Notes: a model not told the origin generated them from the letters alone. 64,000 bases of DNA from a virus (IMGVR_UViG_3300010344_001272:11046-75045); one strand, 5' to 3'; positions 3,039 to 17,117 are shown, counted from the stretch's first letter. Numbers and translations: made by a program.

Positions 3039-3126
3039 GGTCTCAGGAGCTGCTAGGTGTGGCTGCCGGCCTGTCACGCCGGAACGACTAATAATCGACA
3101 GGAGGGTTCGAACCCCTTTGGGACCG
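3039..3126 (+). tRNA. 88-nt type-II-like tRNA with 19-nt variable arm; anticodon loop CTGTCAC reads GTC (Asp)
   Basis: acceptor GGTCTCA/TGGGACC 7/7 with one wobble, D stem AGCT/GGCT, anticodon stem CCGGC/GCCGG, T arm GAGGG-TTCGAAC-CCCTT; long variable arm is unusual for GTC. Confidence 0.45.
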
Positions 3127-3156
3127 CTAACCGTAGTGATAGAACAGAGTTTCATC

Positions 3157-3229
3157 GTGAAAATAACTCAATAGATAGAGTGTATTGCTTCTAACAATAA
3201 GGTCGCTGGTTCGACTCCAGCTTTTTACT
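3157..3229 (+). tRNA. tRNA-Arg(TCT)
   Basis: acceptor GTGAAAA/TTTTTAC with one wobble, D stem ACTC/GAGT, anticodon stem TATTG/CAATA, loop CTTCTAA, T arm GCTGG-TTCGACT-CCAGC; D loop lacks GG. Confidence 0.7.
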
Positions 3230-3261
3230 AAAAAGGCTCTTTCTGGTTTTCTCGGTTAAAC

Positions 3262-3333
3262 AGGGGTATGGTGTAATGGTTAGCATGTTTCTCTCCAAAA
3301 GAAATGATCTGGGTTCGAGTCCTGGTACCCCTG
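3262..3333 (+). tRNA. tRNA-Trp(CCA)
   Basis: acceptor AGGGGTA/TACCCCT, anticodon stem TTTCT/AGAAA, loop CTCCAAA, T loop TTCGAGT. Confidence 0.8.
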
Positions 3334-3363
3334 CTAATCAAATCCAAAACTTTTAGTTCAAAT

Positions 3364-3382
3364 GGATATATAATATAAAAAT
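3364..3382 (+). promoter_or_regulatory. T4-late-like promoter motif GGATATATAATATAAAAAT
   Basis: one of at least seven similar ATATATAA(A/T)AAAA boxes 8-25 nt upstream of start codons. Confidence 0.4.
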
Positions 3383-3389
3383 ATCCTCT

Positions 3390-4052
3390 ATGAATTGCGA
3401 AAATTGCGGAAATAAACATGATGGAACTTATGGTTCTGGAAGATTTTGTTCATCTAAATGTGCTAGAGGTTTTAGTACAAAAACAAAAAGAAAGGAAATT
3501 AACCAAAAGGTAAGTAAAAAACTAAAGAAGAATTTTCTGGAAATAAAAACTTGCCCATGTGGAAAAACGTTTGAAACTTCAAATAAAAAAAGATATTGTT
3601 CTTCTTCTTGTGGAAGTCATTATTCTCAGTTAGGAAAAAATAAGAAAAAAGGGATAGAAAGAAAACAAGGATCGGGGGGATTAAGACCTGGTGGAGGTAA
3701 ATCAAAACAAATTCCATACACAAATTGGCTAGGTTTTAAAATGTTTCTTAACACAGAAGAAATAGAAGTAGCAAAAATACTTGATGAGAAAAAATTAAAT
3801 TGGGATAGAAACAGAAAAGGCTTTCCTTATTTAATGCGAAATGGAAAACAAAGAAAATATTATCCTGATTTTGTAGTAAATGGAAACAAATACATTGAAT
3901 ACAAAGGGTGGGTTACTGAAGAAATGGAATGGAAAATGAACGATGCAGTTAAAACTAATAATCTAAATTTGAATATTATAGTCGGAACAGACCCTCGATA
4001 CCAGAGATTCGGTATAACCTTAAAAGAATTAAAAAATGGAAAAAGCTTTTAA
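3390..4052 (+). CDS. putative homing-type endonuclease (N-terminal zinc ribbon, C-terminal YYPDF...IEYKGW PD-(D/E)xK-like motif); paralog of 17118-17750
   Basis: CxxC...CxxxC at N-terminus, basic middle, conserved C-terminal block shared with second copy; sits inside tRNA array. Confidence 0.4.
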   Translation: MNCENCGNKHDGTYGSGRFCSSKCARGFSTKTKRKEINQKVSKKLKKNFLEIKTCPCGKTFETSNKKRYCSSSCGSHYSQLGKNKKKGIERKQGSGGLRPGGGKSKQIPYTNWLGFKMFLNTEEIEVAKILDEKKLNWDRNRKGFPYLMRNGKQRKYYPDFVVNGNKYIEYKGWVTEEMEWKMNDAVKTNNLNLNIIVGTDPRYQRFGITLKELKNGKSF

Positions 4053-4236
4053 ATTTTTTCAAGAATTAATTAAAAGACCTGTTATTAAATCTAAAAAAAT
4101 TAATTTTGGTCCGTATTTCGAAACAAGACGGCGAATTGGGGAAAACAAAGTTACGAGAAATCAGGATCAATTAAAGGATTTTTTTGATGCGGTAATAATA
4201 GAACAAGATATTTTCGAAAAAGAGAAACGCGTATAA
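4036..4236 (+). CDS. hypothetical protein
   Basis: 66-aa ORF. Confidence 0.25.
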   Translation: MEKAFKFFQELIKRPVIKSKKINFGPYFETRRRIGENKVTRNQDQLKDFFDAVIIEQDIFEKEKRV

Positions 4237-4289
4237 TCTAACGAATAACTTGGTTAGTCTGGGGCATCGAGAACCTCTATACGCACCAC

Positions 4290-4363
4290 GGGCTGTTAGC
4301 TCAGATGGCTAGAGCGCCTGCCTTGCAAGCAGGAGGCCAAGGGTTCGACTCCCTTACGGTCCA
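4290..4363 (+). tRNA. tRNA-Ala(TGC)
   Basis: acceptor GGGCTGT/ACGGTCC with two wobbles, D arm GCTC-AGATGGCTA-GAGC, anticodon stem CCTGC/GCAGG, loop CTTGCAA. Confidence 0.85.
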
Positions 4364-4424
4364 CTACAGACAGACTGTTAAATTTTCATAGTAACCGTGA
4401 CGACGGGTTTCATAGAAAATTAAC

Positions 4425-4498
4425 GCCTTCGTGGCGCAATTGCGTAGCGCTACTCCCTCTTAAGGAGAAGGTTAAGGGTTCGAGTCCCTTCGGAGGCA
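4425..4498 (+). tRNA. tRNA-Lys(CTT)
   Basis: acceptor GCCTTCG/CGGAGGC, D arm GCGC-AATTGCGTA-GCGC, anticodon loop CTCTTAA, T arm AAGGG-TTCGAGT-CCCTT; A-A mismatch at 27-43. Confidence 0.7.
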
Positions 4499-4506
4499 CA
4501 AATGCC

Positions 4507-4613
4507 GGATGATACACTGTTTTATCACAGTGCCGGCTCCAAGGGCGATACGTGGTGGTTGGTTGCCGGCCCCACCCAGTTGGTTATCATGGGTTCGATC
4601 CCCATATCGTCCA
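4507..4613 (+). tRNA. atypical 107-nt tRNA-like gene
   Basis: perfect acceptor GGATGAT/ATCGTCC, D arm ACTG-TTTTATCA-CAGT, T arm ATGGG-TTCGATC-CCCAT, but the anticodon region is a GCCGGC...GCCGGC stem enclosing 27 nt plus a 19-nt variable region; packed in the tRNA array with 3-8 nt spacers. Confidence 0.3.
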
Positions 4614-4618
4614 CAAAT

Positions 4619-4695
4619 AGTGCGTTAGTTCAGTTGGTTAGAATATCAGACTGTCACTCTGAGGGTCGCGAGTTCGAGTCTCGTACGCACTGCCA
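4619..4695 (+). tRNA. tRNA-Asp(GTC), CCA encoded
   Basis: acceptor AGTGCGT/ACGCACT 7/7, D arm GTTC-AGTTGGTTA-GAAT, anticodon stem TCAGA/TCTGA, loop CTGTCAC. Confidence 0.85.
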
Positions 4696-4702
4696 TAGAA
4701 TC

Positions 4703-4759
4703 TGTAGTAAGAATAGAGTTTCATCGTGGTAAACATTGGTTCGAATCCAATACCGAGCG
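4703..4759 (+). other. conserved tRNA-junction motif followed by an isolated tRNA 3' fragment (T arm ATTGG-TTCGAAT-CCAAT plus acceptor strand ACCGAGC-G)
   Basis: motif TGTAGTAAGAATAGAGTTTCATCGTGG as in three other sites; no D or anticodon arm and no complementary 5' acceptor strand nearby. Confidence 0.3.
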
Positions 4760-4801
4760 CATTGCTTAGTAATTAAACTCTTTTCAACTTTCTCAGATTA
4801 C

Positions 4802-4877
4802 GGGGAGTTAGCTCAGCAGGTAGAGCGACGGACTGTTAATCCGCAGGTCATGGGTTCGATCCCCTTACTCCCCGCCA
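4802..4877 (+). tRNA. tRNA-Asn(GTT), CCA encoded
   Basis: acceptor GGGGAGT/ACTCCCC 7/7, D arm GCTC-AGCAGGTA-GAGC, anticodon loop CTGTTAA. Confidence 0.75.
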
Positions 4878-4888
4878 AATTTCAAACG

Positions 4889-5143
4889 ATGGATGAATTA
4901 TTAGAGATTATCGAAAGATTAAAAGAAGAGAATGAAGATTTGAAATCAAGATTGATTGATCTTACATTTGAAATGAATTACAATAAACAAACAGAATTGA
5001 TTGAGTTTGTTCGTTCAATTTATTCAAGTATCGAACAGGAAATGAATTTCAAAACAAGAAGTAAGTTATCCAAGAGCCAAATGCTCTATAGTTTGAAAAA
5101 GAACATTGAAGAATTTGCTAAAAACAATAAAATAGCATTATGA
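4889..5143 (+). CDS. hypothetical coiled-coil protein
   Basis: ORF-track frame 4736-5143 overlaps tRNA-Asn; first ATG after the tRNA is at 4889 (MDELLEIIERLKEENEDLK...). Confidence 0.4.
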   Translation: MDELLEIIERLKEENEDLKSRLIDLTFEMNYNKQTELIEFVRSIYSSIEQEMNFKTRSKLSKSQMLYSLKKNIEEFAKNNKIAL

Positions 5144-5571
5144 AACTTTATCGATACAGTGTTACATCTTCAAGACATGGTGCAATTCCACACGTTGAGT
5201 TACAATCGTATGATGTTAAAAAGGAAACAAATAAAGGATATTGGATTAGTTTGTATTGGGGAAGTGATAAGAAATGGGTTTCAAAAGATGGATTGCGAAG
5301 ATTTGCATTTCCAACAAAGTATCAAGCAATGCAGAATTTTATAAAGCGAACTGAGAAACGTGTAAAATATTTAGAAATAGATTTACAAGCATGCCAAGTT
5401 GGTTTGCAGTCTGCAAAAAGAATACAAGAAGATATTTCTGAAGATGATGATGTTGTAACATTATATCATATTTTAAAACTGCGGGGTAGAGCAGCGGTAG
5501 CTCGTGAGGCCCATAACCTCAAGGTCGAGGGTTCGAACCCCTTCCCCGCTACAAATGGCGAGAAAGTTTAG
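5140..5571 (+). CDS. hypothetical protein; 3' end reads through tRNA-Met
   Basis: 143-aa ORF; last 30 codons coincide with a well-folding tRNA so the true stop may be misplaced or the overlap is real. Confidence 0.35.
   Translation: MKLYRYSVTSSRHGAIPHVELQSYDVKKETNKGYWISLYWGSDKKWVSKDGLRRFAFPTKYQAMQNFIKRTEKRVKYLEIDLQACQVGLQSAKRIQEDISEDDDVVTLYHILKLRGRAAVAREAHNLKVEGSNPFPATNGEKV
5480..5551 (+). tRNA. tRNA-Met(CAT), possibly initiator (1-72 T-T mismatch)
   Basis: D arm GAGC-AGCGGTA-GCTC, anticodon stem TGAGG/CCTCA, loop CCCATAA, T arm GAGGG-TTCGAAC-CCCTT, acceptor TGCGGGG/CCCCGCT with 1-72 mismatch. Confidence 0.7.
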
Positions 5572-5682
5572 AAAAAGGCTCTTATTAGCTTTCTCATTTC
5601 GGTGTAGTAATTATGAGAGTTTCATCGGAAAAACGTCAAGCTCATAACTTGAAGATCGTTGGTTCAAATCCAGCTCTCGCCA
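5557..5682 (+). tRNA. tRNA-like Met/Ile2(CAT) gene with about 60-nt insertion in the D loop that contains the conserved junction motif
   Basis: acceptor GGCGAGA/TCTCGCC 7/7, D stem GTTT/AAAC, anticodon arm TCAAG-CTCATAA-CTTGA 5/5, T arm GTTGG-TTCAAAT-CCAGC; the canonical parts are interrupted only inside the D loop. Confidence 0.4.
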
Positions 5683-5706
5683 CACTCACTTTTTGTTCCT
5701 TGGCTA

Positions 5707-5722
5707 TGATATATAAATAAAA
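5707..5722 (+). promoter_or_regulatory. T4-late-like promoter motif GATATATAAATAAAAA
   Basis: immediately upstream of GIY-YIG gene. Confidence 0.4.
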
Positions 5723-5729
5723 ATGTATC

Positions 5730-6284
5730 ATGCCAAGGAAACCAAAAGTGTATCATGTTCTTTACAAAACAACTTGTTTAGTGACAAATCGATATTATAT
5801 TGGAATGCACTCAACAAATGATTTAAATGATGGATATTTAGGAAGTGGAACAAGATTAAGATATTCTATTAAGAAATACGGAATTGAAAATCATAAGTTT
5901 GAAATTTTAGAAAACCTTCCCGATAGAAGTTCTTTGAAATTAAGAGAAAAGGAAGTTGTTAATGAAGAATTAATTAAGGATGTTAATTGTATGAATTTAA
6001 AATGCGGGGGTGAAGGAGGAGGAAAATTTTGGAATAAAGAACACCAGAAAAAATGTTCTATTGCAGGAGCCCTTGCTGTGTTACCTATTAGAAGACAATA
6101 TCATCTTGATAAATTAAAAACAGATCCAGAATATAGAAAAAAATACAAACAATCACTAAGTAAAGCACTATCAGGTGAAAAAAATCCTTTTTATGGAAAA
6201 CATCATACAGAAGAAACAAAACAAAAAATGAGAAAACCTCATAAAACATATAAAAAACGAAAAGCAAAAATCATGACCTCGTAA
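5730..6284 (+). CDS. GIY-YIG homing endonuclease
   Basis: N-terminal KVYHVLYKTTCLVTNRYYIGMHST...GYLGSG GIY-YIG module; paralog at 18204. Confidence 0.75.
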   Translation: MPRKPKVYHVLYKTTCLVTNRYYIGMHSTNDLNDGYLGSGTRLRYSIKKYGIENHKFEILENLPDRSSLKLREKEVVNEELIKDVNCMNLKCGGEGGGKFWNKEHQKKCSIAGALAVLPIRRQYHLDKLKTDPEYRKKYKQSLSKALSGEKNPFYGKHHTEETKQKMRKPHKTYKKRKAKIMTS

Positions 6285-6347
6285 CTCAGTTGGTAGAGTA
6301 CCACACTTTTAATGTGGGAGTCGTGAGTTCGAGTCTCACCGGGGTCA
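6275..6347 (+). tRNA. tRNA-Lys(TTT)
   Basis: acceptor GACCTCG/CGGGGTC, D arm ACTC-AGTTGGTA-GAGT, anticodon stem CCACA/TGTGG, loop CTTTTAA, T arm GTGAG-TTCGAGT-CTCAC. Confidence 0.85.
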
Positions 6348-6363
6348 CAATGATTAGAGTATT

Positions 6364-6593
<230 letters not shown>

Positions 6594-6671
6594 CACTGGA
6601 TGCCGATTGCCGGGGGAGGTATGTTCCCTGATTTGACGGCTATTATCAAAGTGCGGGCATGAAATCCTTTC

Positions 6672-6749
6672 GGAAGATTAGCTCAGTTGGTTCAGAGCAC
6701 TTGCCTTACAAGCAAGGGGTCGTGGGTTCGAATCCCTCATCTTCCACCA
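6672..6749 (+). tRNA. tRNA-Val(TAC), CCA encoded
   Basis: acceptor GGAAGAT/ATCTTCC, D arm GCTC..GAGC, anticodon stem CTTGC/GCAAG, loop CTTACAA. Confidence 0.85.
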
Positions 6750-6760
6750 AATAATTTGAT

Positions 6761-7267
6761 ATGGATTTTAAAGAATTTCCAATCAGACAACAAATGAACA
6801 GACATGATTGTTCAGTATGTGTCATTTGGTGTATACTTAGATATGCTGGAATAGATATTACTTACAGAGATTTATATCGCTTCATTCATCCTCCAATAGG
6901 CCCTAATGATGGGGTTTCTGGAGAACAAGTAATGAAAATACTTAGAAGTTTTGGAATTAATGTTGTTTCAGAAACTAGTAATATTTCAAAATTAAGAATT
7001 GATACAAATAATTGGCCCGTAATAGTCAGTATACAACACAAGAAAAAAAGAAATGTTGATTGGAAAAACATAATCGAATTTGGACATTATGTAATTGTTT
7101 TAAAAGTTGATGATAAAAAAGTAAAATTCATGGATCCAAATTATGGAAAGATAAGGTCTTTAAATATTAAAGATTTTAAAGACAGATGGCATGATGGAGA
7201 TGAAAATGAACTTTGTAAATATCCAGCAATCATATGTATGGTAAATGAATCGAAATCTATACTTTAA
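6761..7267 (+). CDS. putative papain-like cysteine peptidase (C39-like)
   Basis: N-terminal HDCSVCVIWCILRYAGI and later GHYVIVLKV...DPNYG match Cys/His arrangement of C39 peptidase domains. Confidence 0.45.
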   Translation: MDFKEFPIRQQMNRHDCSVCVIWCILRYAGIDITYRDLYRFIHPPIGPNDGVSGEQVMKILRSFGINVVSETSNISKLRIDTNNWPVIVSIQHKKKRNVDWKNIIEFGHYVIVLKVDDKKVKFMDPNYGKIRSLNIKDFKDRWHDGDENELCKYPAIICMVNESKSIL

Positions 7268-7559
7268 GGATGGTGTTCTTTTTGCTAAGGGCTACGAAAG
7301 AGTGGTTCACGGAGGGCGAGGAGATTATATAGAGTTAACTAAAGATCAAATAGTTGTAGAACTTAGATCAAAATTTAAACAATCACTTCCGGAAGCCGTT
7401 TCTGACGAGCCCTTTTATTACTACTGGTTGGTTCCAATTGGAAGAGAAGAAAAAATTTACTGGCAGTGCAGAACTGTAAATTATGCAGATTACAAAATAG
7501 GATATTATTATATAAGTCCTAAGTTAATTATACCATTTGATAGTACAGAATTATTTTAA
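7245..7559 (+). CDS. hypothetical protein
   Basis: 104-aa ORF. Confidence 0.3.
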   Translation: MNRNLYFKDGVLFAKGYERVVHGGRGDYIELTKDQIVVELRSKFKQSLPEAVSDEPFYYYWLVPIGREEKIYWQCRTVNYADYKIGYYYISPKLIIPFDSTELF

Positions 7560-7571
7560 TAAATAAGATAT

Positions 7572-7931
7572 ATGGAAGACAAAGATTTAGATATTAGAAT
7601 CACTCGGGGATCAGGCCCAGGGGGACAACATAAAAACAAGGTGGAAACTTGTGTTATTATAACTCATATTCCAACTGGTTTACAAGAGAAGTGTCAAGAA
7701 ACTCGTAGTAAAATTCAGAATCTTGAACTTGCTAAAGAAAGAATTAAAGCGAAAGTAGAGAAACTACAAGAGCAAAAAATTCAAGAGGCAAAAAATGAAC
7801 GCAGACGTGAATTAATTAAAAACCAGAAAGTAGTTCGTACATATAACTTTGTAAGAAATGAAGTTTATGATCATCGGACAAAAACAAAACACGATCTGAA
7901 AAAGTTTATGAGAGGAGAAATTGATCTATGA
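7572..7931 (+). CDS. arfB: ArfB-like peptidyl-tRNA hydrolase / class I release factor GGQ domain protein
   Basis: ITRGSGPGGQHKNKVETCV GGQ motif block followed by basic C-terminal tail. Confidence 0.75.
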   Translation: MEDKDLDIRITRGSGPGGQHKNKVETCVIITHIPTGLQEKCQETRSKIQNLELAKERIKAKVEKLQEQKIQEAKNERRRELIKNQKVVRTYNFVRNEVYDHRTKTKHDLKKFMRGEIDL

Positions 7932-8119
7932 AACTTACACTCGAAAAAGATATAAAAGTAGCTGTTGAAGTAAATGGTGAAAAATTCATTGGATCCGAAG
8001 AGGGAATTTTATACCAAAGTATTACAGATACAGAAATTTTACTTTATATTAAAACAGAACCTGAAGGAAAAGAAATAAAAATTAAAATAGCAAAAGATGT
8101 TAATAATCAAGGTGCATGA
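7928..8119 (+). CDS. hypothetical small protein
   Basis: 63-aa ORF, overlaps start of bS21 gene in another frame. Confidence 0.25.
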   Translation: MKLTLEKDIKVAVEVNGEKFIGSEEGILYQSITDTEILLYIKTEPEGKEIKIKIAKDVNNQGA

Positions 8120-8297
8120 GGGTGAAAATATTGACAAAGCCCTTAAGAGATTCAAAAGAAAATTCAACATGATTGGAGTTGCTAGTGAATTACGTGAAAG
8201 AGAACAATTCACAAAGCCTTCTGTAAAAAAGAGGCAAATAAAACAGAAAGCTAAATACAGACAATACATGCAGAGAAAAGAAGAAATGGGCGAATAA
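8097..8297 (+). CDS. rpsU: ribosomal protein bS21
   Basis: MLIIKVHEGENIDKALKRFKRKFNMIGVASELREREQFTKPSVKKRQIK matches the S21 family pattern over its full length. Confidence 0.8.
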   Translation: MLIIKVHEGENIDKALKRFKRKFNMIGVASELREREQFTKPSVKKRQIKQKAKYRQYMQRKEEMGE

Positions 8298-8301
8298 CAA
8301 T

Positions 8302-8377
8302 GGTTCGGTAGCTCAATGGATAGAGCAACAGCCTTCTAAGCTGTCGGTTGAGCGTTCGAGTCGCTCCCGAATCACCA
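8302..8377 (+). tRNA. tRNA-Arg(TCT), CCA encoded (second copy of this anticodon)
   Basis: acceptor GGTTCGG/CCGAATC, D arm GCTC-AATGGATA-GAGC, anticodon stem ACAGC/GCTGT, loop CTTCTAA. Confidence 0.85.
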
Positions 8378-8393
8378 ATTTAAATTTTCATTT

Positions 8394-10521: not shown

Positions 10522-10523
10522 TC

Positions 10524-10597: not shown

Positions 10598-10613
10598 CTT
10601 AATATATAATAAG

Positions 10614-10814: not shown

Positions 10815-10848
10815 TAGTTTAAAAAAATAAAGAGTATGGACGACGAGG

Positions 10849-11383: not shown

Positions 11384-11404
11384 TAACATTTAAATTTATA
11401 CAAT

Positions 11405-11887
11405 ATGAAAAAAGTTTTGCTCTTCCTCGTAATGTTTGTTTCACTCAGTATGATAACAAACGCACAAACTCCTATGGCATTACGTGTCCAGGGAGGGTAT
11501 TCTTGGATTAATGGTGTCGTTGGTGGTGAACTTCAAATTGGAAAATTTGGAGTAAGCGGTGGATGGATGCCATGTAAAATGCCATTGAGTGGTGATAAAA
11601 TAAGCTCAATTGGTGGTGCTCTTACTTACTACACACTTCCTGCAGACGAAGAAGGATATTCTTATTATGCATCAGTGGGTGTTGCTTCTCAAGGCTACCG
11701 ATATGAATTAACAAGTTCATGGGGATATGGCGAAGAAGCAACTTTACCTATGACAATCATAATGGTTGGTTACAAATATGACAGTGGCGGAGTTAACTTT
11801 AAACTCGGCGGAGGTTATGGATGGTGTGAAGAAGCTGGCGCCTGGACATTTGAAGCAACATTGGGATTTACACTTTTCGGAAATTAA
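11405..11887 (+). CDS. secreted Gly/Tyr-rich protein, possible small beta-barrel
   Basis: signal peptide MKKVLLFLVMFVSLSMITNAQT, alternating G/Y/W-rich strands. Confidence 0.4.
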   Translation: MKKVLLFLVMFVSLSMITNAQTPMALRVQGGYSWINGVVGGELQIGKFGVSGGWMPCKMPLSGDKISSIGGALTYYTLPADEEGYSYYASVGVASQGYRYELTSSWGYGEEATLPMTIIMVGYKYDSGGVNFKLGGGYGWCEEAGAWTFEATLGFTLFGN

Positions 11888-11888
11888 C

Positions 11889-12554
11889 ATGAAAAAACTA
11901 ATCTTTTTGCCGATTTTGATATTATTGATGTTTTCGTGTGAAGAACCGAACACAGCACCTAATATCGTTAATTTGATAGCAAGTGCTCAAACGGTAGAAA
12001 GCGAAGGAACATTGATGTTATCATGTGAAGCCCAAGACCTAGATGGAGACCCTATAATGTACAGATGGTCTTGTGTTTCAGGAACTTTCTTATCTGGAAC
12101 GTCTTCTTCGACTGTAATGTGGAAGGCTCCTCGTACGAATTCTGAAACAATTTCTAAGATTACTGTGCAAATAGCTGATGCAGAACATCCATTCGATAGT
12201 CCATTCATGGATTCACGCGCCATAATAATAATGGTAGACCCCTCTGCGCCAAGTTGTGTTAAAGAAAATTATGGAACGATGATAATCAAGAACACTAATA
12301 CTTATGCTATACGAGTTTATTGTTCAAGAGAAGACCCAAGCTGCCCACAGTGTGTAACTATTGACCCAACTCCAGTGGTAGCATTGGCTCCTAATCAATC
12401 CACAACGTTTAATATCAAACCTGGAAATATTGTGGCATGGTGTATTTCAGAAGCTAATTGGCAATTGGGGTTGGGGGGTCCTTGGACTACAACTATACCA
12501 TTTCCATTAACTCAATGTGAAATAAGAACATTAAATTGGGGACCTGGCAAATAA
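11889..12554 (+). CDS. lipoprotein with Ig/PKD-like segment and C-terminal Cys-rich small beta domain
   Basis: start at internal ATG giving MKKLIFLPILILLMFSC lipobox (ORF-track N-terminal extension overlaps upstream gene); C-terminal CVKENYGTMIIKNTNTYAIRVYC shared with 13108 ORF. Confidence 0.45.
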   Translation: MKKLIFLPILILLMFSCEEPNTAPNIVNLIASAQTVESEGTLMLSCEAQDLDGDPIMYRWSCVSGTFLSGTSSSTVMWKAPRTNSETISKITVQIADAEHPFDSPFMDSRAIIIMVDPSAPSCVKENYGTMIIKNTNTYAIRVYCSREDPSCPQCVTIDPTPVVALAPNQSTTFNIKPGNIVAWCISEANWQLGLGGPWTTTIPFPLTQCEIRTLNWGPGK

Positions 12555-12565
12555 CAATAAAAAAT

Positions 12566-13090
12566 ATGAAAAATCTACTAATCATTTTCATCACAACATT
12601 GTTTCTTACCTCGTGTGGGTGGGGAACCTTCGTGCAGGATATGAATTCTGCAAACAATAATCCTAACCGAACTTCATTTGCTGCAGAAATGCAAGAAATT
12701 CGAGATGCTGGCGGTGATATAACGTATACTGCTTTTATGACACATAATGCCATATTTCATGGTGATAATGTACCAAAAACGTTGGAGCAGCACAATAGTT
12801 ATTTCTGTGAATATACTCTTAACGATCAAACATATTTCAAAATTGTTGCATATGAAGCCACAGATCACTTGACAGCACTTGTTTGTACGGATCTAAAACT
12901 TGAAGGTTATTATGAACAAGAAGGACCATTCAATTGGTTTGCTGGGTGTATTGATATGGCTGATGATCAGAAATGCAAATTGCTTTTTTCTGCAGAGTCT
13001 TCTACTTTTCTTGTTATTTATAAAAAGGGAGAATATGGAAGGGCCTTTAAAGGAAGCATATTAAGTGGAATAAATGTACCTCGTAATTAA
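12566..13090 (+). CDS. lipoprotein
   Basis: MKNLLIIFITTLFLTSC lipobox at first ATG; ORF-track start 12536 is a TTG upstream. Confidence 0.45.
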   Translation: MKNLLIIFITTLFLTSCGWGTFVQDMNSANNNPNRTSFAAEMQEIRDAGGDITYTAFMTHNAIFHGDNVPKTLEQHNSYFCEYTLNDQTYFKIVAYEATDHLTALVCTDLKLEGYYEQEGPFNWFAGCIDMADDQKCKLLFSAESSTFLVIYKKGEYGRAFKGSILSGINVPRN

Positions 13091-13107
13091 TTAATTAACA
13101 CAAATAA

Positions 13108-13356
13108 ATGAAAACAAGAGCTCTTTTAAAATTTTCAGCTATTATAGTAGCTGGATTGATGATCCTAGGATTAAATTCCTGTACTAAAAAACCTTGTGAA
13201 AAGGATAATTTTGGAACTGTAATTGTCACTAACCATACAGGTCAGGTGATTTATGTCGATTGTACACAGGCAGGCAGCGATTATAATGACGAACGAATGC
13301 TTGGTATCGGACAGTCAACTACATATCACATGACTCCCGGACAAATAACCGAATAG
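13108..13356 (+). CDS. small lipoprotein of the CxKDNFGTVIVTN family
   Basis: lipobox ILGLNSC; CEKDNFGTVIVTNHTGQVIYVDC parallels 11889 ORF C-terminus. Confidence 0.4.
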   Translation: MKTRALLKFSAIIVAGLMILGLNSCTKKPCEKDNFGTVIVTNHTGQVIYVDCTQAGSDYNDERMLGIGQSTTYHMTPGQITE

Positions 13357-13547
13357 GCAATTGAGGCCTGGGACTATCCGAACGGTTCATGGTATACTGA
13401 CAGCTATTATCTCGGTCAGTGCGAAACACATAACGATCCCTGGACAGACGGTAAAAAGAAAAGTACCAAAAACTTGGAAAAATTGGATGTGAAGGTAAAT
13501 TCCACTATAAAGATTACCCACGAATAATTTTTCAATTTCACATATAA

Positions 13548-13578
13548 AAAGAGCTCTAGTTTAGAGCTCTTTTTTTGT
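13548..13578 (+). terminator. Rho-independent terminator
   Basis: AGAGCTCTA gtt TAGAGCTCT followed by T7. Confidence 0.65.
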
Positions 13579-13580
13579 TT

Positions 13581-13598
13581 GGATATATAATAAAATTA
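13581..13598 (+). promoter_or_regulatory. T4-late-like promoter motif GGATATATAATAAAATTA
   Basis: 10 nt upstream of M23 peptidase ATG. Confidence 0.4.
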
Positions 13599-13607
13599 TT
13601 TCTATGG

Positions 13608-14558
13608 ATGAAGTTTTATACATATCAAAAAGATACTGTTTCGTATCAACGATATAAGTTTTTTAGACTAAAATTCATCATTCCCTTTTTACTTTTTCAA
13701 TCAGTTATAGCATTTATTGTTTTTATTTTAATTGCTACATTTTATACAACACCTAAAGAAAAAATATTAAAACAAGATGTTGCATATTTGTTATACGAAT
13801 TTGATAATGTAAATAAAAGGATGATTGAAACTGAAGCCACATTAGAACAAATTAAACAAAATGATAGTATCATTTATCAATCCTTGTTCGATGTTAATAC
13901 CATAGCAAAAAAGGAATTAAATGTTTATTATGAGGATTTAGAAGGAAATAAATACAGTCAAATGGTTGAATTAACAAATCAAAAACTATCTGAATTAAGC
14001 GCAAGATTAGCAAAAGAATTATATCGTTTAGATGGAATGGTTAAAACTGCTTATTCACATCAAGAAATGCTAACTCATTTGCCTGCTATTCAGCCTATTG
14101 ATAATAAAGATTTAAAAAGGACTGCGTCAGGATGGGGTATGAGAATTCATCCAGTTTATAACATTCAAAAATTCCACTATGGATTGGACTTTACAGCACC
14201 TACAGGAACTTCTATTTATTCAACTGGGGACGGGGTAGTTGAATATGCAATTCCTTATACTAGCAAAGATTCCCAAGGCTATGGAAATGTGATGATTATC
14301 AATCATGGATATGGATATAGAACCTTATATGCCCATATGAATAAATTTAAAGCAAAGATTGGACAGCAAGTTAAAAGAGGAGAAATAATTGGATATGTTG
14401 GAAATACAGGAATATCTACAGGTCCTCATTTACATTATGAAGTTATAAAGGATGGGCAAAAAGTAAATCCTATCTATTATCTATTTAATAGTTTGACTCC
14501 TGAAGAATATCAAAAAATAATCGAGATATCGAATTCAATAACTAAATCTTATGATTAA
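13608..14558 (+). CDS. M23 family metallopeptidase (LytM-like), membrane anchored
   Basis: HYGLDFTAPTGTSIYSTGDGVV ... NHGYGYRTLYAHM ... GNTGISTGPHLHYEV; N-terminal TM helix; start moved to first ATG after promoter box. Confidence 0.75.
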   Translation: MKFYTYQKDTVSYQRYKFFRLKFIIPFLLFQSVIAFIVFILIATFYTTPKEKILKQDVAYLLYEFDNVNKRMIETEATLEQIKQNDSIIYQSLFDVNTIAKKELNVYYEDLEGNKYSQMVELTNQKLSELSARLAKELYRLDGMVKTAYSHQEMLTHLPAIQPIDNKDLKRTASGWGMRIHPVYNIQKFHYGLDFTAPTGTSIYSTGDGVVEYAIPYTSKDSQGYGNVMIINHGYGYRTLYAHMNKFKAKIGQQVKRGEIIGYVGNTGISTGPHLHYEVIKDGQKVNPIYYLFNSLTPEEYQKIIEISNSITKSYD

Positions 14559-14584
14559 AATGGAAGATTAAAACTTTTGATGAA

Positions 14585-14974
14585 TTGAAGAATAAAATAA
14601 ATAAAATAACTATGGAAGATATTACGAAAGAACAATTTCTTGAGGTTTATAATCAGCATTTGCCAAATAAGTGGATAAAATTTATTTACAAATATTTTTC
14701 TCAAGGAACTACGGAAGAAAATTTGAAACCAAGTAAAATAATAACTGCTATCTTACTTATTTTATTTGTTTCAGGATTTTTTGCTACAGTTTTAGGATTA
14801 CCCAAGGCAGCCATTTTGCCTATAGTAATACTTTATGCTATCATATTAACAGCATTAGTTGGTTCAATGTTTTCAGCAGTAATATTGAATAATTTAAGAA
14901 TACGTAAAATACGAAAAAAATTAGGGTTAACAGTGTGGCAATATAATTTACTTGCAGACTTATACGTAGAATGA
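14585..14974 (+). CDS. membrane protein
   Basis: two TM helices. Confidence 0.35.
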   Translation: MKNKINKITMEDITKEQFLEVYNQHLPNKWIKFIYKYFSQGTTEENLKPSKIITAILLILFVSGFFATVLGLPKAAILPIVILYAIILTALVGSMFSAVILNNLRIRKIRKKLGLTVWQYNLLADLYVE

Positions 14975-15453
14975 AAAAACTTTTAATAATATTATCTCTC
15001 ATATTATTTTCATGTGGCCCTTCTCCAGAGCAAAAAATAATAAAATCTTTTGAAGATGGCAGACATCGTAATCATTTTAAAATAAATAATGTATCTATTT
15101 ATGACACTATTTATTATGTAGATATTATTGATTCACTTGAATTTTACGAAAATAAAGTTCGTTTAATTCGAACACAAATAGATGGTCTTAGGGGATTTAG
15201 AGATAGTGTTTTTAAATTAAATTACCCAGATTCTACTCGCAGATCAATTCTTCAAAAGAGATTTGATTTGGACAGGGAATTACAAAGAGATTTACATCAT
15301 GCTTCAAGCCAACAAATGAATAGATATACATTTTATAATATGAATGATAGTATTTGTGGTTATCTAGTCAAAATTTATACTCCTCGAGATACATTTGATT
15401 TTGTTGTTACATCAAAATATACAATAGTTTGTCCAACTTTTATGTTTTATTAA
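14971..15453 (+). CDS. lipoprotein
   Basis: MKKLLIILSLILFSCGPSPE lipobox. Confidence 0.4.
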   Translation: MKKLLIILSLILFSCGPSPEQKIIKSFEDGRHRNHFKINNVSIYDTIYYVDIIDSLEFYENKVRLIRTQIDGLRGFRDSVFKLNYPDSTRRSILQKRFDLDRELQRDLHHASSQQMNRYTFYNMNDSICGYLVKIYTPRDTFDFVVTSKYTIVCPTFMFY

Positions 15454-15454
15454 A

Positions 15455-16048
15455 ATGAATCCATTTATTGTTTATAAGGAAATATTAGATAAATATCTGC
15501 ATTCTGATTCTTCTTTAAAATTGCAACAAGCTTGGAGTGAACCTCATAGAAAATATCACACAACTGAGCATTTAATATCTGTCTTAAAATATTTAGACAA
15601 ATATAGATTTGGGCTGCCTAATGAATTTTATGATGCTTTAGTGTTAGCTGCTTTTTTTCATGATTGTTACTATGATCCTAAAAGTTCTAGAAATAATGAA
15701 GATGAATCAATACGTCGATTTCTTTCTGAATTTCGAACAAAGGGTGATAATTGGAATATACGGAATGCTGTGATGGCAATGATCGAAGCAACTAAATATC
15801 GCAAACGTCCATCACAATATTTAGTTCGTTTATTTTGGGAAGCGGACAATCATCAATTTTATGATGGATATGAAACACTTTTAAAGAATGAACATTTAAT
15901 TAGACAAGAATTTATTCATCTTCCTAAGTCTGTTTATAGAACTAATCGTATAAAATTTCTAAAAACTAACATCGGTCTTTTTAATTCTAATGTTGATAAT
16001 GATCTAAGAAAACTGATGAAATACGTCGAGGATATATATAAAAATTAA
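15455..16048 (+). CDS. HD-domain phosphohydrolase-like protein
   Basis: HRKYHTTEHL ... AAFFHDCYYDP resembles H..H...HD metal site. Confidence 0.4.
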   Translation: MNPFIVYKEILDKYLHSDSSLKLQQAWSEPHRKYHTTEHLISVLKYLDKYRFGLPNEFYDALVLAAFFHDCYYDPKSSRNNEDESIRRFLSEFRTKGDNWNIRNAVMAMIEATKYRKRPSQYLVRLFWEADNHQFYDGYETLLKNEHLIRQEFIHLPKSVYRTNRIKFLKTNIGLFNSNVDNDLRKLMKYVEDIYKN

Positions 16049-16056
16049 TTATTCAG

Positions 16057-16422
16057 ATGGAAGATGTTAAGTTAGTAGCGGAATCATTACAAGACTTTGA
16101 TAAAATTGATGAAGGAATAGGTGATTTCTTCGCTGGTGCCAAATCAGCAATTTCTTTAGCCCTTAAAAATCCTAATGATGAAGATAAAGTAAATTCAGCT
16201 GTAAAAACTGCTTTTGCTAGACAATTTGGAAAATATCCTAAAATTAAAGAGACTATACTAGGATGGGAATTACAAAAGAAAATAGAGCTATTAAAATTAG
16301 CAGCTAAGAGATTAGAAGATAAAAAGATTGGGTCTTTATCCGTTGTTAAAAAGGATGGAAAAATTTTAGTTGTTGGAGTTCCATTAGAAGGAGGAGCAAC
16401 AACTTCGACAGGAGTTAGATAA
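16057..16422 (+). CDS. hypothetical protein
   Basis: 121-aa ORF. Confidence 0.35.
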   Translation: MEDVKLVAESLQDFDKIDEGIGDFFAGAKSAISLALKNPNDEDKVNSAVKTAFARQFGKYPKIKETILGWELQKKIELLKLAAKRLEDKKIGSLSVVKKDGKILVVGVPLEGGATTSTGVR

Positions 16423-16469
16423 AAAAAGCTGCAAAAAATTTTTTAGATTCAAAAACTTTTTGTATTTTT

Positions 16470-16487
16470 GCGTATATATAATAAAAG
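16470..16487 (+). promoter_or_regulatory. T4-late-like promoter motif GCGTATATATAATAAAAG driving a 23-codon micro-ORF (16501-16572)
   Basis: motif, tiny ORF MKCHSIHISSISSTESCLWPSYVN, then terminator. Confidence 0.35.
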
Positions 16488-16596
16488 AAATTTTTATAGA
16501 ATGAAGTGTCATAGCATACATATTAGTTCGATTAGTTCAACTGAAAGTTGTCTGTGGCCTTCTTATGTAAATTGAAGTACTAACTTTAAAAATTAA

Positions 16597-16630
16597 GGGA
16601 AGGCCTAAAAAGACCTTCCCTTTTTTGTTT
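16597..16630 (+). terminator. Rho-independent terminator
   Basis: GGGAAGG ... CCTTCCC followed by TTTTTTGTTTT. Confidence 0.65.
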
Positions 16631-16635
16631 TATAT

Positions 16636-16711
16636 GCTCTTTTAGCTCAGACGGTAGAGTACTTCCTTGGTAAGGAAGAGGTCTTGGGTTCGATCCCCAA
16701 AAAGAGCTCCA
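16636..16711 (+). tRNA. tRNA-Thr(GGT), CCA encoded
   Basis: acceptor GCTCTTT/AAAGAGC, anticodon stem CTTCC/GGAAG, loop TTGGTAA, T arm TTGGG-TTCGATC-CCCAA. Confidence 0.85.
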
Positions 16712-16713
16712 AT

Positions 16714-16803
16714 GGATGGGTGGCCGAGTGGTCTATGGCGTTAGTCTTGAAAACTAATGATCGAGTGATTGGTCCGTGGGTTCGAATCCCACCTCATCCG
16801 CCA
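16714..16803 (+). tRNA. tRNA-Ser(TGA), type II, CCA encoded
   Basis: acceptor GGATGGG/CTCATCC, 3-bp D stem GCC/GGC, anticodon stem TTAGT/ACTAA, loop CTTGAAA, long variable arm, T arm GTGGG-TTCGAAT-CCCAC. Confidence 0.8.
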
Positions 16804-16805
16804 AA

Positions 16806-16895
16806 GGAGGTGTAAAGCGTAATTGCGTATCGCCCCGGTCCCGAAAACCGGTTCCGTCGTAAGATGGAGTGTAGGTTCGAGTCCTATCGCCTCCG
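16806..16895 (+). tRNA. tRNA-Ser(CGA), type II
   Basis: acceptor GGAGGTG/CGCCTCC, anticodon stem CCGGT/ACCGG, loop CCCGAAA, variable-arm stem TCCGTC/GATGGA, T arm GTAGG-TTCGAGT-CCTAT. Confidence 0.7.
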
Positions 16896-16901
16896 CAAAG
16901 A

Positions 16902-16974
16902 CCCGATGTGGCGCAACGGTTAGCGCAAGCGGCTTATATCCACGAGGTTGGGGGTTCGAATCCCTCCATCGGGA
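16902..16974 (+). tRNA. 73-nt tRNA with anticodon loop CTTATAT (TAT, Ile/AUA); weak anticodon stem
   Basis: acceptor CCCGATG/CATCGGG 7/7, D arm GCGC-AACGGTTA-GCGC, T arm GGGGG-TTCGAAT-CCCTC; anticodon stem AGCGG/CCACG has two mismatches. Confidence 0.5.
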
Positions 16975-16979
16975 CTATT

Positions 16980-17061
16980 CCGGATGTGGATGAATGGTTT
17001 AGTCACCAGTCTGATACACTGGGTTCTTTGAACAATGTAGGTTCGAGTCCTACCGTCCGGA
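16980..17061 (+). tRNA. 82-nt type-II-like tRNA with anticodon loop CTGATAC (GAT, Ile)
   Basis: acceptor CCGGATG/CGTCCGG, anticodon stem CCAGT/ACTGG 5/5, 14-nt variable arm with GTTC/GAAC stem, T arm GTAGG-TTCGAGT-CCTAC; long variable arm atypical for Ile. Confidence 0.5.
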
Positions 17062-17115: not shown

Positions 17116-17117
17116 GA

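Follow-up and report, generated by a model that had tools for sequence, protein, structure and literature searches.

The window, by which we mean the whole 64,000-nucleotide stretch of viral DNA analysed, carries a tRNA gene array that most likely belongs to an AT-rich, Lak-megaphage-like huge phage, whose host is probably a Bacteroidota species. Homing-endonuclease-like ORFs are scattered among the genes of the array, which also encloses genes for an RNA ligase and an RF-1-domain protein (Table 1). Three of its tRNAs concern us here: Asp(GUC) and Ile(GAU), both with long variable arms, and Ile(UAU). ARAGORN places them at 3039-3127 (89 nt), 16980-17062 (83 nt) and 16902-16975, respectively.

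Table 1. Features of the tRNA array and of the three tRNA genes considered
Feature	Position	Strand	Basis or content
tRNA gene array	2849..18151	+	22 ARAGORN tRNAs and at least 3 aberrant tRNA-like genes
tRNA-Asp(GUC), unusual phage scaffold	3039..3126	+	ARAGORN; parsed by reading the sequence
Variable region of long-arm Asp tRNA	3083..3101	+	19 nt: AA-CGA-CUAAUAA-UCG-ACAG
Second tRNA-Asp(GUC), canonical length	4619..4695	+	ARAGORN; Rfam 67.0 bits
RF-1-domain protein gene	7572-7931		inside tRNA array
RNA ligase gene	9371-10003		inside tRNA array
tRNA-Ile(UAU), 73 nt	16902..16974	+	ARAGORN; Rfam tRNA 59.8 bits (gathering 29)
tRNA-Ile(GAU), hairpin-bearing variable region	16980..17061	+	ARAGORN; Rfam tRNA 51.9 bits (gathering 29)
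Variable arm of Ile(GAU) tRNA	17023..17036	+	14 nt: GUUC-UUU-GAAC-AAU

Structure of the three tRNAs

In the textbook view, a long extra arm is restricted to Leu, Ser and Tyr tRNAs. The first-pass annotation had pointed to long arms on other anticodons, and these are real: the Asp and Ile(GAU) genes encode genuine tRNAs with variable regions of 19 and 14 nt. Both families have a 7-bp acceptor stem, a 5-bp anticodon stem, a 7-nt anticodon loop with U33 and a purine at position 37, a 5-bp T stem, and a GUUCGA-type T loop. They resemble class II tRNAs in having a variable region of at least 10 nt with a stem-loop, but their anticodons (GUC, GAU) are not those of class II, and Ser-type arm geometry combined with G73 is likewise absent.

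In the Asp tRNA, the acceptor (GGUCUCA/UGGGACC, 7/7), anticodon (CCGGC/GCCGG, 5/5) and T (GAGGG/CCCUU, 5/5) stems are fully paired. The anticodon lies at 3073-3075 in the loop CUGUCAC, and the discriminator (G73) is G3126, directly followed by CTA, not CCA. G8G9 accompany a 6-bp Sec-like D stem (AGCUGC/GUGGCU) with a 5-nt loop, UAGGU. Three pairs form the variable stem (C3085-G3097, G3086-C3096, A3087-U3095), which carries a 7-nt loop and leaves ACAG on its 3' side.

The Ile(GAU) tRNA has a clear 7/5 arrangement of acceptor and T stems and an ordinary D stem of 3-4 bp. Its acceptor (CCGGAUG/CGUCCGG) is paired 7/7 from C1-G72 onwards, its anticodon stem is CCAGU/ACUGG, and the loop CUGAUAC holds the anticodon at 17013-17015. 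The variable arm consists of a 4-bp stem (GUUC/GAAC), a UUU loop and three unpaired nucleotides, AAU; A73 is A17061, and CTA follows.

The Ile(UAU) tRNA (anticodon at 16935-16937, A73, then CTA) does have the weak anticodon stem earlier ascribed to it, AGCGG/CCACG, in which A27·G43 and C29·A41 mismatches leave 3/5 pairs. Its relatives retain the purine-purine mismatch at 27·43 and pair 29 with 41, giving 4/5 pairs; 14 distinct UAU tRNAs occur across the surveyed phage loci. A UAU anticodon reads AUA without TilS, in place of lysidine-modified tRNAIle2; such decoders are described in Mycoplasma mobile and are common in AT-rich phages, and the window copy is unusual among them only in its additional C29·A41 mismatch. 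No clear lysidine-type tRNAIle2 was seen within the window, and this gene is the only evident AUA decoder there, in agreement with the decoding role first proposed for it. AUA is in demand: Ile makes up 8.4% of codons and AUA is.38 of these (ATT.51, ATC.11).

Conservation, covariation and loss of the arm

Homologues give the main reason to regard the two long-arm genes as more than chance folds. Across 19 aligned Ile-family sequences, extra arm included, 96.9% of paired positions are kept and 18/24 pairs covary; the corresponding values for nine Asp-family sequences are 98.3% and 10/26, with covariation in 5/5 helices. For neither family did any of 500 shuffles equal the paired percentage or the covariation score of the real alignment. 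The arms take part in this pattern. All four pairs of the Ile variable stem covary, and GNRA or UUCG loops are frequent there, while the Asp variable stem alternates among CGA/UCG, CGG/CCG, CAG/CUG and CCA/UGG. The 6-bp Asp D stem is 100% paired with two covarying pairs, and the anticodon stem is 5 bp with 26/44 unpaired. No other fold that would assign either gene to Ser, Leu or Tyr is available; the GUC and GAU loops are flanked by covarying 5-bp stems.

These alignments argue against the pseudogene reading offered in the first-pass annotation, as both long-arm genes are conserved across numerous phage contigs and compensatory changes occur in every one of their helices. As for covariance scores, both Ile genes exceed the Rfam tRNA gathering score (Table 1), whereas the Asp gene has no match to RF00005 at its gathering score of 29, and its top clan match is tRNA-Sec with 27.2 bits (gathering 47; E = 0.003, 601-nt search). 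Most long forms in five loci were recovered independently by the Rfam tRNA model, and some long Ile relatives fall outside it.

Could these be decaying or non-functional copies, or RNAs that act outside translation, for instance as decoys? The sub-threshold Asp score, the two stem mismatches of the UAU tRNA and the clearly aberrant tRNA-like genes in the array would fit, as would the irregular tRNAs found by Mukai et al. to be charged but unused in translation (PMC5389517). We nevertheless consider this very improbable. Helices are preserved across divergent contigs; U33, the purine at 37, the GUUCGA T loop and isotype-specific discriminators are all kept; and tRNAs remain identical in relatives whose intergenic DNA differs. 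The Ile(GAU) tRNA itself is 100% identical in two further loci (L001 and L002), and by ARAGORN it is the sole AUY-reading tRNA in the window's array.

The arm is present in some family members and absent in others. Two relatives of the Asp gene (L361 and L364), which share about 92-94% identity with the window, are missing exactly 11 nt of hairpin sequence, corresponding to 3085-3095 or an equivalent register, which leaves a variable region of AACGACAG; they also show a compensatory 7-66 swap. Across about 30 tRNAs on this scaffold, the variable region falls into two length classes, 7-8 nt (no hairpin) and 15-21 nt (with hairpin). The Ile D-arm motif GGATGAATGGTTKAGTCRCC occurs at 21 IMG/VR loci, four of which encode an ordinary 74-nt class-I tRNA-Ile with a 5-nt variable loop. 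Since the variable loops of these short siblings read UCAAU, GCAAU or GUAAU, the long form can be read as G-[hairpin]-CAAU.

Amino-acid identity and codon meaning

Identity marks follow the anticodon. Every one of the 21 loci with the Ile motif has anticodon GAT. The Asp scaffold carries GTC in 25 cases, TGC in two and TTG in one: all nine aligned Asp-family sequences have G73, both TGC tRNAs have the Ala marks G3·U70 and A73, and the TTG tRNA has the Gln-like marks U1-A72 and G73.

In E. coli, the tRNA-Asp identity set comprises G34 U35 C36, C38, G73, G2-C71 and G10. By these rules, which may not be the host's, the long-arm Asp tRNA has GUC, C38, G73 and G2-C71, although C38 in its relatives was imposed by the search pattern; at position 10 the window has A, where several relatives have G. 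The second tRNA-Asp of the array shares GUC, C38 and G73 with it. Measured against the E. coli Ile rules (G34 A35 U36, A37, A38, A73), the long-arm Ile tRNA has GAU, A37 and A73, with C at position 38. C38 is also frequent in the short phage tRNAIle partners, and short siblings on the Ile(GAU) scaffold have A38. The identity rules used here come mainly from E. coli (PMC9976931), and the phage host is probably a member of the Bacteroidota.

The same pattern extends to other isotypes. Among 897 distinct phage tRNAs, from loci picked by Ile- and Asp-form patterns so that frequencies are biased, 135 have long variable regions with class-I anticodons. They cover Ile, Asp, Asn, Cys, His, Thr, Met, Glu, Pro, Val and Gln, and none in the survey belongs to Arg, Gly, Lys or Trp. 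Discriminators of the long forms match the short forms of their own isotype and not those of Ser or Leu: G in Asn (14/19) and Asp (20/21), U in Cys (11/12) and Thr (6/7), C in His (8/9), and A in Ile (31/36) as well as Met, Pro, Val and Glu (6/6 each). Long tRNAHis also encodes G-1 upstream. Off-isotype discriminators are rare, with G73 in only 3/88 long forms of isotypes that do not use G and A73 in only 2/68 of isotypes that do not use A. Long and short forms with an identical anticodon occur side by side in 46 neighbour pairs.

These observations bear on missense recoding, in which the arm would recruit SerRS to the Asp tRNA (G73) or let LeuRS charge the Ile-anticodon tRNA (A73), so that GAY codons would be read as Ser or AUY codons as Leu. 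The idea has precedents in allo-tRNAs and nematode nev-tRNAs. A long variable region, G73 and a Sec-like D arm give the Asp tRNA a resemblance to (8/4) allo-tRNAs, among which GUC is a predominant anticodon and of which tested examples inserted Ser in response to Leu codons in E. coli. Its top Rfam match is tRNA-Sec, and G73 with an extra arm is formally SerRS-compatible. E. coli LeuRS requires A73, A15-U48 and G18G19 and ignores the anticodon (PMC9976931); the Ile tRNA, with A73, A15 and U48, is partly compatible with it, and nev-tRNAIle(UAU) reportedly receives Leu in vitro.

We still regard recoding as unlikely. Hairpin-less forms of both scaffolds keep anticodon and discriminator, each scaffold is either bound to one anticodon or switches its identity marks along with it, and discriminators in the 135 long forms follow isotype. 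The arms themselves differ from that of tRNA-Ser: long class-I variable stems have 2-4 bp, mostly 3-4, and 3-5 unpaired 3' nucleotides, whereas tRNA-Ser from the same phages has 5-7 bp and about one. In the Asp acceptor branch, G8 could pair with the equally invariant U65; since position 49, opposite U65, is always a purine (A or G), a 7/5 arrangement is favoured over 8/4.

Codon meaning points the same way: GAY and AUY codons have their standard meaning. In the conserved gene for UDP-galactopyranose mutase, 10/17 GAY positions align with D/E and 1/17 with S, and ATY behaves as ATA does, aligning with aliphatic residues. AUY accounts for about 5% of all codons, and the window has no second GAU tRNA. 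The first-pass suggestion of recoding or suppressor tRNAs finds no support: for Ile, the motif is restricted to GAU and has an ordinary class-I form; for Asp, the scaffold exists in hairpin-bearing and hairpin-less versions, and its UGC and UUG variants carry Ala and Gln-like marks, respectively; discriminators of the long forms follow the isotype; and the codon alignments agree with the standard code.

Interpretation and comparison with known systems

We think it likely that all three genes encode functional phage tRNAs, namely hairpin-bearing Ile(GAU) and Asp(GUC) and an ordinary phage-type Ile(UAU), each charged with its cognate amino acid, the arm being a tolerated add-on. Judged by their sequences, they seem to belong to widespread phage tRNA families that keep normal amino-acid identity. 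Ile(GAU) would be a class-I body with a short, stable hairpin inserted into a 5-nt variable loop, and Asp(GUC) a phage-specific scaffold with a similar, evolutionarily labile hairpin. EF-Tu and the ribosome, which already take class-II-shaped Leu, Ser and Tyr tRNAs, could take the long-arm forms too. Once expressed, the three tRNAs would presumably serve translation by covering the heavily used AUY, AUA and GAY codons (GAT is 81% of Asp codons). Selection would maintain the folding of the arm, which may stabilise the core or change recognition by tRNA-targeting enzymes.

A more specific version of this explanation holds that the class-II-like shape shields phage tRNAs from nucleases or modifiers that recognise the tRNA body, while cognate charging is kept; the enzymes could belong to host defence or to the phage's own host shut-off. 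In its favour, the arm arose repeatedly, in at least 11 isotypes and on several scaffolds, it is strongly isotype-selective (75/375 versus 0/174, p = 4e-14), and its folding is kept by selection. The window encodes an RNA ligase, and arrays with long forms are richer in repair genes, an enrichment confounded by phage lineage: a polynucleotide-kinase-like AAA_33 protein (15/89 versus 0/40, p = 0.005), a T4 Rnl1-type ligase (9/89 versus 0/40) and a CCA-adding enzyme (8/89 versus 0/40). Against it, Lys and Arg, the classical nuclease targets, have no long forms, a nuclease that reads the variable region was not identified in this analysis, and the absence of the Asp hairpin in close relatives fits a nearly neutral indel. 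We rate this version as doubtful overall, and evasion of tRNA-targeting nucleases in particular as a guess. Phage tRNAs have been reported to evade tRNA-targeting defences through sequence changes, and like those described here they are duplicates of host isoacceptors whose sequence differences are thought to bear on how well the tRNA pool survives infection; the escape described there runs through anticodon-loop changes or tRNA supply, not the variable arm (PMC10264068, PMC11555353).

The literature searched contained no published description of such long-arm class-I phage tRNAs, and the families are apparently undescribed so far. Among their closest counterparts are the allo-tRNAs and selC* tRNACys, which are bacterial or phage-associated and likewise combine a long variable region with anticodons outside Leu, Ser and Tyr (PMC5389517). 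Allo-tRNAs are defined by a 12-bp acceptor branch split 8/4 or 9/3, and most of them have Ser (or Ala) identity whatever their anticodon; their Sec-like D arm, with a long stem and a small loop of about 4 nt, resembles that of the Asp scaffold, their anticodon stem is lengthened, and GUC and UAU are among their commonest anticodons (PMC5389517). The Ile(GAU) tRNA differs from them: it has A73, its D arm is ordinary, and its acceptor and T stems are clearly 7/5. The Asp scaffold, for which 7/5 is no worse a fit than 8/4, has a 5-bp anticodon stem and a variable stem of only 2-4 bp, also occurs armless, and switches its identity marks with the anticodon. The phage tRNAHis described by Mukai et al. 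has an 8/4 branch, lacks G-1 and carries A73 or U73 (PMC5389517), whereas long tRNAHis here has G-1 and C73.

Nev-tRNAs, the noncanonical V-arm-containing tRNAs that Hamashima et al. described from nematodes and other eukaryotes, also break the Leu/Ser/Tyr-only rule, with a class-II shape on Gly or Ile anticodons. They derive from tRNALeu and are reported to accept Leu in vitro, which is misacylation (PMC3333845, PMC4300185). The phage forms, in contrast, have siblings within their isotype that carry a short variable region, and their discriminators match that isotype; both features point towards cognate charging.

A single isotype in both class-I and class-II shapes is known from Streptomyces coelicolor, where one synthetase serves type I (short-loop) and type II tRNALeu; that case is cellular, concerns one isotype and involves loss of the arm, not gain (PMC6614811). 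Short tRNALeu is also found in phage arrays (37/86), including in a crAss-like phage. A precedent for cognate use in spite of a long arm is selC* tRNACys, which has a long variable region, U73 and anticodon GCA and is reported to be functional in translation as a Cys tRNA, with a cysteinylation assay among the methods (PMC5389517).

Two extra-armed genes in a phage tRNA array

Long variable arms in bacteria belong, by the textbook rule, to Leu, Ser, Tyr and Sec tRNAs, and most of the exceptions known so far either misread the code or are suspected of it. The window carries such arms on Asp and Ile anticodons, within an array of 22 tRNA genes that ARAGORN places on the + strand from 2849 to 18151. 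The tRNA-Asp(GUC) gene pairs its acceptor over 7 bp and its anticodon and T stems over 5 bp each; the anticodon loop is CUGUCAC, the discriminator is G3126, and the 19-nt variable region reads AA-CGA-CUAAUAA-UCG-ACAG. In tRNA-Ile(GAU) the stems are perfect, the anticodon loop is CUGAUAC, the discriminator is A17061, and the variable region, 14 nt long, reads GUUC-UUU-GAAC-AAU. A 73-nt neighbor, tRNA-Ile(UAU), has two mismatches in its anticodon stem (AGCGG/CCACG). Direct reading thus bears out the first-pass annotation, which had described long arms and clean stems in the GUC and GAU tRNAs and a weak anticodon stem in the UAU tRNA. That annotation had also taken low covariance scores as a sign against its reading. 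Ile(GAU) and Ile(UAU) score 51.9 and 59.8 bits, above the Rfam tRNA gathering score of 29, but the Asp gene is missed by this model; its best match is tRNA-Sec, at a sub-threshold 27.2 bits, because its D arm is Sec-like. All three genes are directly followed by CTA, not CCA.

The window (~32% G+C) codes for a gp23-type major capsid protein and a prohead protease. Among GenBank phages the capsid protein best matches those of Prevotella Lak megaphages (48% identity across 98% of its length), and an SprB-repeat protein likewise indicates a Bacteroidota host. Searched by megablast against GenBank phages, the tRNA regions gave no close relative, only trivial tRNA matches or nothing, and blastn of the Ile-long consensus found no match there. 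A crAss-like match to the Ile pair was rejected as a relative, its tRNAs being ordinary and 73–74 nt long. ORFs among the tRNA genes encode GIY-YIG/NUMOD3 and other nuclease-like proteins, an RNA ligase and an RF-1-domain protein; the last two suggest tRNA-repair and ribosome-rescue functions. Two paralogous ORFs, each downstream of one odd tRNA, belong to the ORF family that recurs most often across the surveyed arrays, with homologues at 34 loci, and are probably free-standing homing endonucleases. Farther along, a long, unusually AT-rich block is possibly a module for DNA or surface-glycan modification.

Coordinates of the features discussed
Feature	Position	Strand	Source or content
tRNA-Asp(gtc)	3039-3127	+	ARAGORN
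Asp variable region	3083-3101	+	
tRNA-Ile(tat)	16902-16975	+	ARAGORN
tRNA-Ile(gat)	16980-17062	+	ARAGORN
Ile(GAU) variable region	17023-17036	+	
RF-1-domain protein	7572-7931	+	GGQ; ArfB-like peptidyl-tRNA hydrolase; within tRNA array
RNA ligase	9371-10003	+	PF09414; within tRNA array
Paralogous ORFs	3390-4052; 17118-17750	+	N-terminal Cys-rich motifs, C-terminal nuclease-like region; weak Phage_endo_I match
AT-rich block	40883-63886	-	26-31% G+C; many glycosyltransferases, T4-type beta-glucosyltransferase homologue, UDP-galactopyranose mutase
tRNA-like gene (CGA)	16806-16895	+	Unannotated; between tRNA-Ser(UGA) and tRNA-Ile(UAU)
tRNA-like sequence (CUU)	2942-3012	+	Rfam partial match 2955-3006; no ARAGORN call
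tRNA(CAU), initiator-type	5480-5552	+	
tRNA-like gene (CAU), 65 nt	5615-5679	+	Rfam tRNA 40.9 bits; no ARAGORN call
Ser(UGA)/HNH region of contig L001	2487-3060		Close relative of window phage
tmRNA on contig L033	9414-9770	-	Full length; Rfam 70.4 bits

Several further tRNA-like genes in the array are irregular. The CGA gene combines acceptor GGAGGUG/CGCCUCC, discriminator G, an odd D region without GG, an anticodon arm with C33 in place of U33 (CCGGU-CCCGAAA-ACCGG) and a 6-bp variable arm (UCCGUC-GUAA-GAUGGA). ARAGORN misses it, as does Rfam at gathering (tRNA-Sec, 37.1 bits; gathering score 47), and it may be a counterpart of the irregular phage tRNASer of Mukai et al. It is kept in L001, where the tRNA-Ser(UGA) gene has another, irregular sequence and an HNH-endonuclease ORF sits between that gene and the Sec-like, tRNA-Ser(CGA)-like one, immediately upstream of the latter; the changed Ser(UGA) gene and the insertion are evidence for endonuclease-driven turnover in the array. 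The CUU sequence combines a D arm and a 4-bp T stem with an anticodon arm whose loop is CUCUUAA, but its acceptor is poor (GGGUUAC/GUUACCC, 6/7 pairs) and irregularly spaced (5 nt before the D stem); it is essentially identical across four related contigs despite differing spacers. The initiator-type tRNA(CAU), with D arm GAGCAGCGGUAGCUC and U1-A72, has the anticodon loop CCCAUAA, where C33 replaces the near-universal U33, and the 65-nt CAU gene encodes its CCA and has just 4 bp in its acceptor stem.

Covarying arms and hairpin-less siblings

Relatives of the Ile genes were sought in IMG/VR. An exact 23-mer search returned two contigs with identical Ile(UAU)+Ile(GAU) pairs; these were near-identical and hence useless for covariation, and gapped patterns were used instead. 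The pattern CTGATAC, 18–28 nt, GGTTCGANTCC matched 105 viral loci, about 40 of them holding 82–88-nt tRNAs with anticodon GAU by ARAGORN. In a core family of ~26 distinct sequences the standard stems are paired 7/7, 5/5 and 5/5, and the arm begins right after position 43 with a 3–5-bp stem, often closed by a GNRA or UUCG loop, and ends in 3–4 unpaired bases. Across an alignment of 19 sequences, 96.9% of cells are paired vs 77.0% in shuffles, slid controls collapse, and 18 of 24 pairs show compensatory changes, including all four of the extra arm. When a long-arm pattern with GAU was sought across genomes, most of the matches listed were DPANN archaeal tRNAs and Sec/allo-like GGAGGG...CCCUCCG tRNAs; since only one small contig among them, L208, is a member of the phage family (it was binned with a Methanobacterium MAG), the scan says little about hosts.

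Searching with the D arm of this family, blind to anticodon, recovered 21 loci, and all 21 have GAU. Four are ordinary 74-nt tRNAs whose variable loops (UCAAU, GCAAU or GUAAU) show how the long form can be read, as G-[hairpin]-CAAU. Descent from Leu, Ser or Tyr tRNAs was considered, the D arms of several long forms resembling class-II D arms, and was rejected for Ile since the same D arm is present in short class-I tRNAIle. The sequences fit better with a class-I tRNA-Ile that gained a hairpin in its variable loop, or with the reverse deletion.

For the Asp gene, a similar pattern found 24 loci with 82–91-nt Asp(GUC) tRNAs. The window's copy falls in a family marked by G8G9, a 6-bp D stem (AGCUGC/GUGGCU), a 5-nt D loop and a variable region of AA, a 2–4-bp stem, a loop and ACAG. 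Nine aligned sequences are 98.3% paired, with ten covarying pairs, among them two in the D stem and every one of the three in the extra arm. G8 and U65 never vary, a constancy compatible with either a 7/5 or an 8/4 division of acceptor and T stems; position 49 opposite U65 is only A or G, as 7/5 predicts. An anticodon-blind search with the D arm returned ~30 tRNAs with variable regions of either 7–8 nt without a hairpin or 15–21 nt with one. GUC is the anticodon of 25, and G73 is present in all nine aligned family members. Two others carry UGC together with the alanine marks G3·U70 and A73, and one carries UUG with U1-A72 and G73. In the two contigs closest to the window (~92–94% identical), the Asp tRNA lacks exactly 11 hairpin nucleotides (AACGA[CUAAUAAUCGA]CAG) and shows a compensatory A7-U66 to U7-A66 swap, while neighboring tRNAs are identical. 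This difference marks the hairpin as a recent, tolerated insertion or deletion in a dedicated tRNA-Asp scaffold.

The UAU gene resembles the usual AUA decoders of phages, apart from a slightly weaker stem. The surveyed loci contain 14 distinct UAU tRNAs; in the window's family the 27·43 mismatch, purine against purine, is retained with the stem otherwise 4/5 paired, and the extra C29·A41 of the window's lineage is a single U-to-C difference from its relatives. AUA makes up 38% of Ile codons and ~3% of all codons, and the window has no clear lysidine-type tRNAIle2.

Isotype selectivity and amino-acid identity

ARAGORN was run on all fetched phage loci and the window, a sample in which Ile and Asp long forms (36 and 21) were selected for. 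Among 897 distinct, well-paired tRNAs, 135 combine a class-I anticodon (not Leu, Ser or Tyr) with a variable region of at least 9 nt. The long forms are isotype-selective (p = 4e-14, Fisher's test): they account for Asn 19/66, Cys 12/38, His 9/33, Thr 7/42, Met 6/59, Glu 6/41, Pro 6/37, Val 6/33 and Gln 4/26, but for Arg 0/88, Gly 0/36, Lys 0/23 and Trp 0/27. Long and short neighbors with a common anticodon form 46 distinct pairs. In five loci the Rfam tRNA model independently recovered most long forms, missing the Sec-like Asp scaffold and two Ile-long genes. In a 735-kb phage genome that is published but lacks annotation (LR756501.1), a 91-nt initiator-like tRNA(CAU) bears an extra arm of 7 bp and adjoins two normal Met tRNAs.

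The same arrays hold other departures. The converse is also common: of 86 distinct tRNALeu in the surveyed arrays, 37 are short (class-I length, 74–76 nt), including the annotated tRNA-Leu of a cultured crAss-like phage (Kehishuvirus 'tikkala', L346). One contig with long-arm tRNAs (L033) encodes a tmRNA. Seven arrays (L358 and six others), all with long-arm tRNAs, encode a lysine-2,3-aminomutase-like radical-SAM protein that is EpmB-like, EpmB belonging to the enzyme family that modifies EF-P.

The first-pass annotation had proposed that these genes are recoding or suppressor-type tRNAs, or else pseudogenes. Covariation contradicts the latter. Recoding, in the manner of allo-tRNAs or nev-tRNAs, is weighed against by several results. 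First, identity marks are linked to the anticodon: discriminators of long forms track isotype (G in 14/19 Asn and 20/21 Asp; U in 11/12 Cys and 6/7 Thr; C in 8/9 His, which have an upstream-encoded G-1; A in 31/36 Ile and in 6/6 each of Met, Pro, Val and Glu), with G73 in isotypes that do not use G in only 3/88 and A73 in isotypes that do not use A in 2/68. Second, hairpin-less siblings exist. Third, arm geometry differs: extra stems of long class-I forms are mostly 3–4 bp with 3–5 unpaired bases 3', whereas tRNA-Ser of the same phages has a 5–7-bp arm stem and ~1 unpaired base. Fourth, the code is standard by codon alignment. In an alignment of the window-encoded UDP-galactopyranose mutase with two solved homologues, GAY codons stand opposite D/E at 10/17 positions and opposite S at 1/17, and AUY codons behave as AUA does. 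Under a standard code, a Ser-charged GUC or Leu-charged GAU tRNA would give missense at ~6% or 5% of codons.

The best reading is that Asp(GUC), Ile(GAU) and Ile(UAU) are cognately charged, translating tRNAs and that the extra arm is an add-on. In this view the synthetases concerned rely on anticodon and discriminator, and the arm, once present, is kept folded by selection; class-II shapes are already accepted by EF-Tu and the ribosome.

A possible role for the arm and comparison with known systems

It is conceivable, though we think it unlikely, that huge phages systematically give a class-II-like form to a defined set of the class-I tRNAs they encode (Ile, Asp, Asn, His, Cys, Thr, Met, Glu, Pro, Val and Gln, never Arg, Gly, Lys or Trp), with cognate identity kept and the arm serving as a self-mark or shield. 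A shield would act against enzymes that recognize the tRNA body, either host defense tRNases or modifiers, or alternatively against the phage's own host-tRNA-destroying activity. Consistent with this idea, a polynucleotide-kinase-like protein, an Rnl1-type ligase and a CCA-adding enzyme are encoded more often in arrays that have long forms, an enrichment that is real in the sample but confounded by lineage. Defenses that target tRNA are also widespread, yet no long forms occur for Lys and Arg, the classical nuclease targets, and the Asp hairpin is absent from close relatives. Protection of the tRNA gene itself from homing endonucleases, the commonest ORFs in the arrays, was also considered and is not supported: long-arm tRNAs are only marginally nearer to them (medians of 372 vs 529 nt, p = 0.018), and the share that is adjacent, 25% vs 21%, does not differ significantly.

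At least eleven isotypes other than Leu, Ser, Tyr and Sec carry the arm in many uncultured phage tRNA arrays, with amino-acid identity features intact and with hairpin-plus and hairpin-minus versions in near-identical phages. If confirmed, this would mean that an added arm is no obstacle to many synthetases, to EF-Tu or to the ribosome, that natural scaffolds exist for engineering tagged or orthogonal tRNAs, and that tRNA annotation misses or mislabels such genes, as with the LR756501.1 tRNA and the Asp scaffold that fails Rfam's tRNA model. A self-mark or shield, if real, would add to the tRNA arms race a new layer based on shape. The arrays offer a concrete, testable system for asking whether tRNA shape, beyond the anticodon loop, matters in phage-host tRNA conflicts.

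Full-text searches of one literature library found no description of class-I-isotype long-arm tRNAs in phages, an absence that is not proof of novelty. The closest systems described are allo-tRNAs and selC* tRNACys (PMC5389517), nematode nev-tRNAs (PMC3333845, PMC4300185) and the two-shape tRNALeu of Streptomyces (PMC6614811). In common with known systems, the window's genes have a long arm on a non-class-II anticodon and, for Asp only, a Sec-like D arm. Unlike those systems, they keep isotype-specific identity marks, have short arm stems and arm-less siblings, and combine these with a 7/5 branch in Ile and, in Asp, a branch that fits either 7/5 or 8/4; allo-tRNAs are defined by 8/4 or 9/3.
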